Of a DNA stretch of 51,164 nucleotides, positions 4,725-18,138 are shown in pieces. The notes under the pieces are model-generated. The model was not told the DNA's origin, did no database searches, and saw nothing but the letters and a program-made list of their open reading frames with translations. The position numbers and the translations under genes were made by a program. Origin of the DNA: Girardia tigrina (taxonomy: Eukaryota); NCBI GenBank assembly GCA_001938485.1, contig MQRK01206504.1, forward strand, positions 1 through 51,164, given 5' to 3'. Positions within the stretch are counted from its first letter, which is position 1, and the number at the start of each line of letters is the position of its first letter.

Positions 4725-4995
4725 TTATCGTGGATGTTGGTAATTGCTTCTAATCAACCGACTCAGTGCAATATTGTATTGTCTGTGGACCTTCAGATAT
4801 TGTCTCAGCACCTGCGAGAATCTCGGATTTCCGTCTTCTAAAAGTAAAATTTTATTTTAATATATTAATAATCAATTAAACCGTACTGGAAACATGGCCT
4901 TGTCTTCGTCTTCTTAATTCTAATCCGTCTACATTTCCAAAAGATATGTAGAATACCAAAATTATCAAACAAAACAATATTTGTTTTCTGCTCAT
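4725..4995 (-). CDS. Two-exon small secreted peptide precursor, copy A (73 aa); exons 4995-4887 and 4837-4725
   Basis: Spliced: MSRKQILFCLIILVFYISFGNVDG-LELRRRR-QGHVSKDGNPRFSQVLRQYLKVHRQYNIALSRLIRSNYQHPR*. 49-nt intron GTACGG...TTTTAG (4886-4838), hydrophobic signal peptide, upstream TATAAA, AATAAA just after the stop; the frame is preserved in the paralog. Confidence 0.75.
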
Positions 4996-5876
4996 TGTTT
5001 TACTTAAGAAGTTTAAGAATTAATAAAATAATTCAATATTTATATAATATATATGCATTTGTATCATATGTCCCAAATGACACTTCATTGTTAACAACAA
5101 ACTCGTACACATACATTCACACATGTTCAAGAATTCATTCAATTATTTTTCATTTCTTTTTTATTTATACATTTTTTAAATAATTATAAAAAGTCTTAAT
5201 AAAATAGAGTAATTACATATGTATTTTTGTAATTTATAAAATTTCCCTTCCAAAGGCCCCTATTGAGATTGCGGAGGATCTAAGTTATGTTTTGATGATG
5301 CAACTGCTGAGAATTTTAACCTTCATATTTTTGTCTTTTATAGTCAGACTGTAAATAAAAAAATCAATTGTCTAATTCACTAACAATTAAATCTTTTATT
5401 ATTTAAAATTTATATAACAAACAAAGTCTAACGAATAATTAATCTCTGGTATAGATATTAATATATATTATGTAACAATTTTAATAAATATACAAGAATA
5501 AATATTTTTTAATGATTACTGAAAGTTAATAGCTAAAGTCAGTAAATGATGAATCAAATGGGTGATTGGAACGACAACCAATACCAAATGATGATAATTA
5601 CGATGGTAAAAATTTATTAAATGTCTATCAATGATTTACTTTTACTAGTTGGTATCCAAAAAAACGAATATCAGCCTCAGTACTTTTATTCGATGAATAA
5701 ATTTTATTCGGAAGATTTGGTGAAAAGACGAATTTGAGTCACATTTTTATACCTGGATTAGCTTTTTGTTTCGACGTAATAAATGTAAATCTGAATTTGG
5801 TATTTGAATTGATGTAATAAATGTCAAATAATAAATTTTCTAACTGATTCTTGTCGTTTTTTAATGTTTAATTTCA

Positions 5877-7030
5877 GATTTGTTTAACATACGTCCGCTT
5901 CGTGTCCAAAGTTTTTACATTTTTTACATACGATATTCTTGCACTCGCGTTGGATGTAACCTTCTTTCCCACATCCATAGACGTAACTTTCCTTTCTCTT
6001 TTACATTCCTGGCTTTTCTGTGCTACTTCTTTAAAGTTCCAGGATATGATGTGGTTTCTCATTGATATTCTTTTCTCAGACGTTTCTCCTTTCGCTATAG
6101 TGGTTCCTTTTCTTACTGCATCTCTGCACGTTGGCCTTTCTGAGTGTACTGGTTTTCCGATCTTCGTATTTCATCCATTTTCTTCATGATGTTTTTCACA
6201 TCCGTTGTCTCTTTCTTCTCTATTTTTTTTCCTTCTTCACATCACTGTCTTTCAACCCGTGAATCTGAAGGCATATTTTAATTTCATCCGTCTATTTGTG
6301 TTTAGTCAGCTTTACTGCTAACTTCTCTGCTTTTGCCGAATATTCTTCAGCTGATTCTTCCGACCTTTCGAAGTTAAGAGCTTCTTCTAAATCTTCTATC
6401 ATTGTAATCTTCCTTTGGAAGGATTCTCAAAGACAAGTTTCATAATTGTTCACTTCAGCTAATATCCCTTCGTATATTGTTCGCAATTCGTGGTATAATA
6501 ATCACCAATATTTCTAGAATATTCTCTGGAATCTTGGCCACTTTGAAATATCTGACGCAAGATGAAATGAATATCTCAAAGTCGTCTTGTTTACAGTATT
6601 GCTCCGGTAATAATCGCGATATCAGTTGACCTGAATTACTGGCTATGGTCGCCATATTGTGTTCGAGGTTCTATTGCGATGAAATTTCCGAAAAAGACAT
6701 TTTTGAAACTTTCATTTCATAACAAAAATAAACATATTATTTAAACAAGTTTTGTCTAAGTTAATTTCTGAGGAATGATTTTTAATTTTTCGTGCATAAA
6801 CCAATGATATCTAATTAATTATAAATATAAAAATATATTAATTTATTATTTTTGAAATTTTATATTGTATTTAACGTTTTAATTTAAAAACTATTATAAA
6901 CATAAATACGTTTTTCGTTTCTCTGATTTTAATAATGCCTATTTTTAATTATCTACGCTTAAATTACATTCACTCCGGCTCCGGTCTCCAAAAACAATTC
7001 ACCTTTATATCTTTTACTTAAAAATCCATA
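5877..7030 (-). mobile_element. Gypsy relic: decayed gag with CCHC knuckles, PBS and upstream LTR-like sequence
   Basis: ...ACAATA|TGGCGACCA PBS near 6655; gag MATIASNSG...DDFEIFISSCVRYF; knuckles CGKEGYIQREC and CKKCKNFGHEADVC near 5880-5975. The outer LTR boundary is approximate. Confidence 0.7.
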
Positions 7031-7174
7031 CTTGGACTTATTATATATTCTTTATAGTTTATCTTAAACTTTGATATATTTCTGTTGTATCATTTATCAT
7101 TAATCATTACAAAATTTTAGAGTTTTGTGTTTATTTAAATTTGAGTTTTCTAAAAAAGTCCAATATTCTATTTC

Positions 7175-7602
7175 ATGGTTACCGTTACCATGGTTACAAT
7201 CGACTTGAATCACTGTATCCGTTGCTAATAAAAAATGTCCCTTGGTTACCGTTGCTAAGGTGATCGGAACAATTGCTAGGGTAATCGGAGCCGTTGCTAG
7301 GGAAATCGGAACTGTTGCTAGGTAATTCGGACCCGTTGCTGTGGTAACCGCGACCTTGGAAACGACTTCTCCACGTTTGGTAACTTATATCCATTGCTAT
7401 GGCAACCAGTAACCCATCGCAACGATATGAGATTTCGACCTCTCCACCCGGGGGGATGTCGATAACACATAAATATCTTTTACCATGGCTACAGACATGT
7501 TTATATATTGGTTACTGTACCGATTTCCATAGTAACCGAGCTATTTCATAGGTTACCCTGGTCCGTTGTCATGGTGACGTCACCGTTTTCATGGTAATCA
7601 TG
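7175..7602. repeat. Array of 21-bp degenerate repeats with X-box-like motifs
   Basis: ccgttgctagggtaatcggaa-like units at ~7249-7352, plus scattered gttaccatggttac, attgctatggcaac, gttgtcatggtgac and gttttcatggtaat. Confidence 0.75.
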
Positions 7603-7677
7603 ATTATTGGAAAAATTATTGATTGATGTAGAACTCTCATTTTCCCCCTACTATAAAAACAATTTAAAAATTTAAAT

Positions 7678-16582: not shown

Positions 16583-16641
16583 TGAGGATTCCTCATGTTG
16601 TTTACCACAACAACTATATAAAAACAATGTAAAGGTTTTTT

Positions 16642-17668
16642 AATTATGATTGTGCAAAAAATATATTTTTGTTTAAATAATTATCGCCTCAAATTATCGT
16701 TCTTTGTTGTTTTTTTTCTATCAATCGTTTTAACACAACAAACTTATCTCCGTCAAATGCCAATTACAATTTTCTAGTTGATTTTCCTTTTTCAATGGTT
16801 CGACCTTCTTCATTCATCACACGAGATTCTCAACAAATCGAAATGTAACGTGACGAAAATCATCGACGAAAGATATCTTTTCGAGTGTTTCGGAATGGCA
16901 TTTTTCCACGCCAACTTCATCGCACATTTCCGTATAGATCGTCAATTGTTTCTGTATTTCCGATACGACTAGACGATTTCTCACAGTGAAATATTCGTAC
17001 TCAACTCGACATCGTTTTTCAGAGACAATTTTACCCAGGTTACACTTGATAAGATCGTTGGGCAATTAAGTTGTATCGACGCGATCGATCGCGATTTCCT
17101 CGCGCACGTTTACGTTAGCAATTAAACGAAACCAAAACGATTTTGAAGTTTTTCGATTACAAATAGTCGCTGCTTGAGGGGATTGAATAGCGATCAATTC
17201 TGATTGACTTTCCAATTGAGATATTAAGACTTTAGCTTCGAAGGGTTGAAAAACATTGAAGGTAGCGAAATGTCGCTGATTTGCTCAAGGAGTCAATCGA
17301 GATGTATTCACCTTGGATCCCTTCGTCCTATTGCACCACCTATCAAACGTCAGATTATCTCTACCAGAGAGGCTTCAATCAACACAAACTTGAGGGTCAA
17401 TTCATCGCACAGATCCCACAACTCACATTCCTCAACTTCGATTTAACTAACTTAGGATGTTTCATTATTCTGTTTAAATTACAATTTTGACATCTGTCTA
17501 CAAAGGTCTTTACGTCTATATTCATTGAAGGTTTGATTAAAAAAGACAAAGATATGAAGTTTAAAATTCTCAGCAGTTGCATCATCAAAACAACTTAGAT
17601 CATCCGCAATCTGAAGAGGGCTCTATTATAGTGAAATTTTATAAATTACAAAAATACATAGTTAATTA
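16642..17668. pseudogene. Copy 2 of the ~1-kb coding-like block, immediately upstream of peptide gene copy B
   Basis: Direct repeat of 7678-8703; its right end is also present, inverted, at ~5205-5340. Confidence 0.5.
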
Positions 17669-17833
17669 CTTTATTTTATGAAAAACATTTTTATAATTAT
17701 TAAAAAAAATGTGTAAATAAAAAAATGAAAAATAATTGAATGAATTCTTGAACATGTGTGAATGGATGTGATCGAGTTTGTTGTTAACAATGAAGTGTCA
17801 TTTGGGACATATGATACAAATGCATATATATTA

Positions 17834-17839
17834 TATAAA
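17834..17839 (+). promoter_or_regulatory. Candidate TATA box of peptide gene copy B
   Basis: TATAAA ~45 nt upstream of the ATG and conserved in copy A; weak on its own in AT-rich DNA. Confidence 0.35.
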
Positions 17840-17882
17840 TATTGAATTATTTTATTAATTCTTAAACCTATTAAGTGAAACA

Positions 17883-18138
17883 ATGAGCAGAAAACAAATA
17901 TTGTTTTGTTTGATAATTTTGGTGTTCTACATATCTTTTGGAAATGTAGACGGATCGCGACAAGATAGCGTTTTCAGTACGGTTCAATTGATTATTAATG
18001 CATTAAAATAACATTTTACTTTTAGAAGACGGAAATCCGAGATTCTTGCAGGTGCTGAGACAATATCTGAAGGTCCACAGACAATACAATATTGCACTGA
18101 GTCGGTTGATTAGAAGCAATTACCAACATCCACGATAA
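17883..18138 (+). CDS. Two-exon small secreted peptide precursor, copy B (68 aa); exons 17883-17976 and 18026-18138
   Basis: MSRKQILFCLIILVFYISFGNVDG-SRQDSVFKDGNPRFLQVLRQYLKVHRQYNIALSRLIRSNYQHPR*. 49-nt GT-AG intron 17977-18025; 15-nt in-frame deletion relative to copy A; AATAAA at ~18146. Confidence 0.75.

Follow-up and report, generated by a model that had tools for sequence, protein, structure and literature searches.

The window, that is, the whole stretch of DNA analysed here, comprises the 51,164 nucleotides of contig MQRK01206504.1 from Girardia tigrina (GenBank assembly GCA_001938485.1) and carries a pair of short genes, A and B, each consisting of two exons separated by a 49-nt GT-AG intron in phase 1. 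Gene A lies on the minus strand; its exon 1 (coding sequence 4887..4995) encodes a 24-aa signal-like peptide followed by the pro-piece LELRRRR and a glutamine, the intron occupies 4838..4886, and exon 2, including the stop codon, covers 4725..4837. Gene B lies on the plus strand and opens with the same signal, its exon 1 (17883..17976) being 15 nt shorter and devoid of the polybasic site, followed by the intron (17977..18025) and an exon 2 (18026..18138) that is predicted to form a single helix. The spliced open reading frames (ORFs) amount to 73 aa for A (4995-4725, minus) and 68 aa for B (17883-18138, plus). Both genes have TATAAA upstream, at 5044 in A (5039..5044, minus) and at 17834 in B (17834..17839, plus), and AATAAA downstream, at 4717 in A (4712..4717, minus) and at 18146 in B, where this signal and the poly(A) addition site together span 18146..18166 (plus). 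The introns, the spliced ORFs and the TATAAA and AATAAA motifs had been put forward in a preliminary description of the DNA, and its coordinates proved right; re-comparison likewise returned an identical 24-aa N-terminus, with one synonymous change in 72 nt, and a sole coding indel, the in-frame 15 nt of exon 1. Exon 2 differs between A and B at 1 of 113 nt (S/L).

Three further GT-AG pairs in each gene would leave an open frame, but the 49-nt intron is the one displayed by RNA-type contigs. The contigs stem from four public runs, X1 to X4 (two studies, at most two samples), whose RNA nature is presumed, and were mapped on gene B; transcripts of gene A were recognised in the same mapping by their exon-1 tail. 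The joint of 17976 to 18026 is present in contigs of all four runs, bearing out the predicted 17977/18025 junction, and in X2 and X3 a second contig links the shared signal region to exon 2 via 36 letters that are the exon-1 tail of A. Contig cover begins at 17860, about 25 nt past the TATAAA of gene B, crosses exon 2 unbroken and is zero in the intron interior and the promoter, which provides an internal control against DNA. A contig end lies at 18166, 15 nt past AATAAA, and in X1 a loose, non-templated A tail follows at a place where the genome is not A-rich. The spliced contigs of both exon-1 types and the A tail indicate that A and B are spliced and that the B type at least is polyadenylated: these are real, transcribed and spliced genes that have escaped annotation.

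An inverted duplication some 15 kb long (3507..18561) carries the pair in its two arms, and the likeness of A and B is for that reason unsurprising. The arms match 3507-3799 with 18561-18260 (91%), 4648-5349 with 18215-17531 (90%) and 9956-11859 with 14639-12549 (82-89%). A and B are unlikely to stem from a haplotype misjoin, the stretch being gap-free (no N gaps between 3206 and 29975), the arms 82-91% alike and both types present in RNA. A third, geneless copy of the upstream flank of gene B was found at 7648-8703 (plus; 86% to 16614-17668, same orientation), ending about 215 nt short of the ATG position. A supposed transposon with terminal inverted repeats at 5301-8620 was dropped as a candidate, since its inverted ends are this third flank copy.

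Genes A and B belong, as short members, to a family with seven or more loci that includes giant proteins rich in lysine, arginine and histidine (K/R/H). The genome (1.43 Gb in 255,254 contigs) was searched at the DNA level with the gene body (9 matches) and the 3' untranslated region (UTR; 8 matches), and these matches reduce to the seven loci; exon 1 is present at six loci, and a seventh exon-1 match, on C233231 (E 0.95), is attributed to chance. Besides A and B the short loci are C195906 (70 aa, with a 21-nt indel that keeps the frame and a stop that comes four codons early), C34895 (a 19-nt deletion, frameshifted, 52 aa) and C181788 (exon 2 alone with a 3-nt in-frame deletion, exon 1 being absent within 9.9 kb). 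X1 and X3 contain spliced contigs of the C195906 type, with loose ends, which brings the short types seen spliced in RNA-type contigs to three. The two long loci, C248680 (L020:2660-5755, minus) and C204802 (L021), have the promoter, signal, intron position and 3' UTR in common with the short genes. C248680 encodes 1,012 aa with 41.5% K+R and a net charge of +369, its mature chain containing 23.9% K, 18.4% R and 4.5% H and the protein 1.2% glycine; the C204802 protein reaches about 1,830 aa, with 308 N inside that leave its frame incompletely in view. The 5' ends of the long genes are near-identical, and their His-rich tandem repeats differ between the two. As far as the 5' 1.8 kb goes, the 57-nt intron of the long gene is skipped in an X4 contig and pieces of its exon 2 are covered in X1 and X3.

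The layout of the products suggests how they may be processed. The signal was judged from hydropathy (a peak of 3.3 at the N-terminus) and layout, and V-x-G at residues 22-24 presumably suits the signal-peptidase rule, with a predicted cleavage after Gly24. A further cut of A at RRRR would give a 42-mer starting with Gln, and hence potentially with pyroglutamate, B would give a 44-mer, and the last 37 residues of the two predicted products are nearly the same. By calculation, B without its signal and A cut after RRRR each carry a net +7 (+10 for A before removal of RRRR), in keeping with the earlier estimate of about +7. The proposal that the two paralogues diverge in processing stands as regards the RxRR|Q site, present in A and not in B; the effect would be small, the predicted products being 42 and 44 aa long and both +7. 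C195906 and C34895 are predicted to begin with Gln directly after the signal. The site of A recurs in both long paralogues (RKRR|Q and KRRR|Q), which favours real processing. In the 1,012-aa protein the longest stretch free of dibasic sites comprises residues 32-89, from the Q after RKRR to the G before KR, and the long precursor might thus release a 57-residue N-terminal peptide amidated at G-KR. Short genes retain about 42 positions of this stretch and have lost G-KR; A and B end in QHPR and a stop, with no dibasic site after the helix. A single-sequence AlphaFold model of exon 2 alone, excluding the exon-1 residues, predicts one helix at residues 4-32 (pLDDT 83), and a 120-aa model of the long protein is of low confidence (pLDDT 55).

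The junction between the two kinds of gene bears on their origin. All five short copies follow the 5' part of the long gene as far as roughly codon 73, from where they match its stop and 3' UTR; the final codons of exon 2 of gene B are the junction of the long paralogue's 5' part with its stop. At the switch point both sites carry ATCT, a 4-nt microhomology, and a join at this motif leaves the frame intact. The short genes probably arose by one internal deletion from a long gene, and we hold this with good confidence because the reverse, an insertion, needs a 2.8 kb open and mostly unique polycation frame to arrive in frame. Some points weigh against the inferred deletion: a run of at least four matches occurs at 5.6% of random junctions, so that the microhomology lends modest support; the junction would look alike after an insertion that duplicated 4 nt; and the tree that bears on the direction is midpoint-rooted, without an outgroup. 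Built from upstream region, signal and intron, that tree groups A with B, C195906 with C34895, and the two long genes together, with full support. It is unlikely that the short gene is ancestral and that the long genes formed by insertion or expansion just before the stop. The five short against two long loci, the 4-nt duplication and the long middle part, which partly consists of tandem repeats unlike between the two long copies, would suit such a course, but some 2.8 kb of K/R-rich frame, free of stops and for the most part non-repetitive, would have to be inserted in frame, G-KR falls within the part that would be inserted, and the midpoint tree shows the long genes as its most distant group.

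One character conflicts with the tree: A shares the polybasic piece with the long genes, and B, C195906 and C34895 lack it. A and B differ at 2 of 185 nt in signal and exon 2, at 4 of 49 in the intron and at 22 of 195 further upstream. The conflict and this gradient suggest that A and B may have been homogenised by conversion between the palindrome arms.

Signal and mature part differ in their rates of change. Between A and the long gene the signal has 4/57 nonsynonymous and 6/15 synonymous changes (p=0.004; dS 0.55, dN 0.07), and exon 2 has dS 0.50 and dN 0.56. Comparison of A with C195906 over the first 20 codons of exon 2 gives 2/14 synonymous and 21/46 nonsynonymous changes, and that of A with C181788 gives dS 0.06 and dN 0.13. 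Exon 2 diverges by 38-39% against 14-17% in promoter, intron and UTR (p=7e-5, 1e-5), and among the short genes nonsynonymous changes number 2/56 in the signal versus 21/46 in exon 2 (p=3e-7), a contrast that would not be expected from plain decay. On these counts the signal is under purifying selection and the mature part free or accelerated, and the pattern suggests positive selection on the mature part.

Relatives outside the genome were sought widely. Residues 1-120 of the long exon 2, compared with proteins of 536-1707 aa, had 135 candidates and none at E 1 or less; the short exon-2 frame and the long exon-1 frame had two candidates each and no match, in a search that left out proteins below 71-77 aa and with them the 68-aa form. 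HMMER over 1.84 billion representatives returned nothing at E 0.001, the ESM Atlas no usable match (best 0.79, unnamed), a profile search of the Protein Data Bank (PDB) only four unrelated entries at E 0.6-0.9, and Foldseek no match to the exon 2 helix model. These blanks mostly reflect how few database proteins come from such animals; as far as the searches reach, the family is lineage-specific, as had been proposed. Searches of the available full texts gave no description of the family and no paper with its motif.

Several known systems offer points of comparison. In the parts of the sources available to us, ap3 of polyclad and proseriate flatworms combines a signal with a huge K/R/H-rich chain in adhesive vesicles and is thought to work by charge (PMC9229212, PMC6745481). 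As far as those accounts go, ap3 (Tmed-ap3, Mile-ap3) and the KR-rich flanks of Mlig-ap1 share with the long paralogues a signal, a very long low-complexity K/R/H-rich repeat chain and the lack of known domains, and C248680 and C204802 are, by this analogy, candidates for a triclad ap3-like gland protein. A putative N-terminal peptide cassette and miniature paralogues like those seen here go without mention for ap3 in the passages available (PMC9229212, PMC6745481). The planarian PROG-1/PROG-2 epidermal secreted proteins resemble A and B in the available descriptions in being small, lineage-restricted, multicopy, signal-bearing and basic. PROG-2-5 has 16.8 kDa, and homologues of PROG-1, a type of about 15 kDa, contain 10-19% Lys together with Cys and Asp residues that are conserved (PMC5750089, 10.1101/179986, parts available); compared by description, A and B are unlike them in that their mature forms of about 5 kDa are Cys-free and Arg-rich with 2 Lys in 42-44 residues, the one Cys of the A/B precursor lying within the signal.

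A further parallel is with antimicrobial peptides. A conserved signal with a variable mature part, and copies subject to birth and death, is the general pattern of antimicrobial-peptide families. The conserved signal, variable mature part, furin site that is present or absent and dead copies of the present family match that pattern. Among the Diptericin paralogues, as far as the source passages go, one has a furin site that is absent in another, the mature part varies and dead copies occur (PMC6857651). With linear cationic helical members A and B share a length of 42-44 aa, the charge of +7, a predicted helix and the layout of signal, pro-piece and mature part. They are unlike antimicrobial peptides in lacking any Pfam likeness and in their kinship with a giant polycation, and their amphipathicity does not stand out from that of shuffled sequences. 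The family has so far gone undescribed; its general kind is known, but its tie to a giant polycation is unusual.

Our tentative preference, held at somewhat less than even confidence, is that the peptides are cationic gland-secreted effectors, miniaturised from a polycationic gland protein and acting by charge and not via an NPY receptor. The giant K/R/H-rich gene, with the same promoter, signal, intron and 3' UTR, would be the parent. A convertase would cut at RxRR and expose Gln, which may cyclise to pyroglutamate, and in the long precursor an amidated 57-residue peptide would be freed at G-KR, in front of the polycation; loss of the sequence between roughly codon 73 and the stop would have created a peptide-only gene without the amide signal, and further duplication of the short gene would have been followed by homogenisation of A and B in the palindrome. 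The peptides would be secreted in a gland product, for mucus or surface defence, and act by positive charge, the predicted mode being that a helical +7 peptide binds polyanions, for instance the membranes of microbes or sulphated glycosaminoglycans (GAGs) in planarian slime. In the source passages available, planarian slime is rich in sulphated GAGs (PMC5450325, PMC11430875), and cationic peptides in planarian mucus are suspected and not identified (PMC11430875). A more specific version, in which a hidden pyroglutamyl, amidated 57-mer was freed by the microhomology deletion and diversified under positive selection into mucus defence peptides, is conceivable but doubtful.

If the preferred reading of gland-secreted effectors is correct, the short genes become candidates for the cationic peptides suspected in planarian mucus (PMC11430875, as far as its passages go), and the long genes a triclad counterpart of the ap3-type polycation known from other flatworm orders. 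A large structural secretory gene would have given rise, by deletion, to a small peptide gene, and one genome would hold the parent, the junction and the decaying copies.

Several observations weigh against that reading. Function, tissue and peptides are putative. Of the 119 basic runs in the long protein, 6 come after Gly; when the N-terminal 130 residues are shuffled, 236 of 2000 sequences have an equally long dibasic-free stretch, as do 29 of 2000 shuffles of the whole protein. The hydrophobic moment of 0.77-0.79 (11-mer) is reached by 13-28% of 1000 shuffles, which lends no support to the amphipathic character proposed in the preliminary description. ap3 is Gly-rich (GRK and GRKHS repeats) and the long paralogue contains 1.2% Gly; the likeness of the two is one of composition only, compared by description. 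No single contig spans the long mRNA within the 5' 1.8 kb examined. Two of the five short copies are damaged, one frameshifted and one without exon 1. In comparisons of short with long genes exon 2 has a dN/dS of about 1.1, and nowhere does its ratio significantly exceed 1 (A vs C195906: p=0.058 over 20 codons, 0.16 over 36), and for this reason relaxed constraint together with gene conversion of the flanks could mimic the divergence pattern. Frameshifted copies and a dN/dS near 1 are what the preliminary description had held to speak against a gene, and both were encountered in part: exon 2 has a ratio close to or exceeding 1, and a frameshift affects one short copy.

A rival view is that the short genes are expressed, largely functionless truncations whose 5' parts are kept alike by conversion. 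It draws on the promoter, splice sites and poly(A) signal that the deletion left intact, the exon 2 dN/dS of about 1 against the long genes, the copy frameshifted by 19 nt and that found without exon 1, the loss of the G-KR amide signal, and the agreement of A and B at synonymous sites as well (1 of about 41 changed), as conversion would give. Against it, the signal changes at 2/56 sites between short lineages versus 36/254 in non-coding DNA (p=0.025), and exon 2 changes more than non-coding DNA while its synonymous change (14-24%) is at background. The frame is kept in four of five short exon 2s through 3- and 21-nt indels, an argument that would be weak alone, and three short types are spliced in RNA. 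We regard such relics as unlikely; were the short genes mere expressed relics, the interest would move to the long genes.

A lineage-specific hormone or neuropeptide other than NPY, acting on a receptor and with the pyroglutamate-to-amide cassette of the long precursor as the ancestral ligand, would explain the signal, RxRR|Q and the G-KR of the long genes, all marks of a prohormone, as well as the predicted helix. Receptor ligands are usually conserved in their mature part, which is the part that changes fastest here; the amidated end is missing from the short genes, no Pfam hormone family was matched, and a polycation of at least 900 residues would be unusual as a prohormone spacer. A hormone is accordingly a distinctly unlikely account of the family. 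That long and short genes are reproductive secretions, from a seminal, cement or cocoon gland, is very unlikely: fast evolution and strong basic charge also suit reproductive proteins, and nothing in the data points to reproduction.

The preliminary description had also linked the peptides to the NPY/NPF fold. Both exon-2 peptides match no Pfam family at E up to 10, and a Hormone_3 (PF00159) search of the genome gave 11 loci among 53 candidates scored, none of them on this contig and hence neither A nor B; as controls, NPYs from this genome match Hormone_3 at 9e-9 and 6e-5. Three of these eleven NPY/NPF-like loci are identical in peptide. All 11 have a phase-2 GT donor after base 2 of the last Arg codon of RxR, whereas A and B have no phase-2 donor in an Arg codon and carry a phase-1 intron ahead of the helix. 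An intron inside the last Arg codon is also described for planarian npy genes in the part of the source available (PMC2953531). Against a profile built from nine of the loci (two identical copies dropped), A scores 2.9, B 4.0 and the long genes 5.6-6.0 bits, scores reached by 59, 30 and 10 of 2000 shuffles, and held-out true members score 14.5-45.9. A comparison with hhalign gives a probability of 7% (P=0.005 over 14 columns, selected post hoc), a weak helix likeness. A PDB sequence search with exon 2 finds no match at all, and a true NPY of this genome finds NPF, pancreatic polypeptide (PP) and PYY. With regard to the PP-fold, in which a polyproline arm packs on a helix, the exon-2 model shows the one helix and has no Foldseek match. 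Like planarian NPY/NPF, the genes encode a signal and then a helix with an LRxYL-like turn; unlike them they evolve fast and have no HMM match, RxR-F/Y-G-KR amidation end or Arg-codon intron. Genes A and B are not NPY/NPF, and the likeness is one helical-turn pattern. Derivation from an NPY/NPF gene with its helix retained, for which the alignment of LRQYL-x4-Y with the NPY helix and the shuffle and hhalign values speak, is highly improbable in view of the low scores, the missing introns and PDB matches and the loss of the LRQYL-type motif in two paralogues.

Elsewhere in the window, two head-to-head single-frame ORFs lie at 13293-14252 (plus, 320 aa) and 10340-11158 (minus, about 271 aa); they are 69% identical, contain Pro-Lys-Cys repeats and have no Pfam match over the cut-off. 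The segment 12301-14267 is found again at 99% on C221018 with unrelated flanks, which is how a 2-kb unit that is mobile or was recently duplicated would look. A 538-aa open frame at 27202-28818 (plus) has a Cys/His spacing like that of degenerate zinc fingers and no Pfam match over the cut-off, and one of 693 aa at 40056-42137 (plus) is likewise without a Pfam match. At 30954-32568 (minus) a PWWP-domain frame (E 2e-10) is followed by more frames on that strand; together they may be one gene, either broken or with several exons. The stretches 19454-22390, 33562-34384, 42655-43410 and 45913-46935 resemble, by eye, what we take to be fragments of reverse transcriptase, a long-terminal-repeat (LTR) element, and Tc1/mariner and hAT transposases. 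Elsewhere in the genome, COX1 copies read better under genetic code table 9, which flatworms and echinoderms use, than under table 5 (AAA as Asn and ATA as Ile, the residues of COX1 at these positions); taken together with the low GC and the eleven NPY-like loci of planarian layout, this points to a flatworm, probably a planarian. Many COX1 copies carry stops (31 matches), the picture expected if mitochondrial DNA has been copied into the nucleus.

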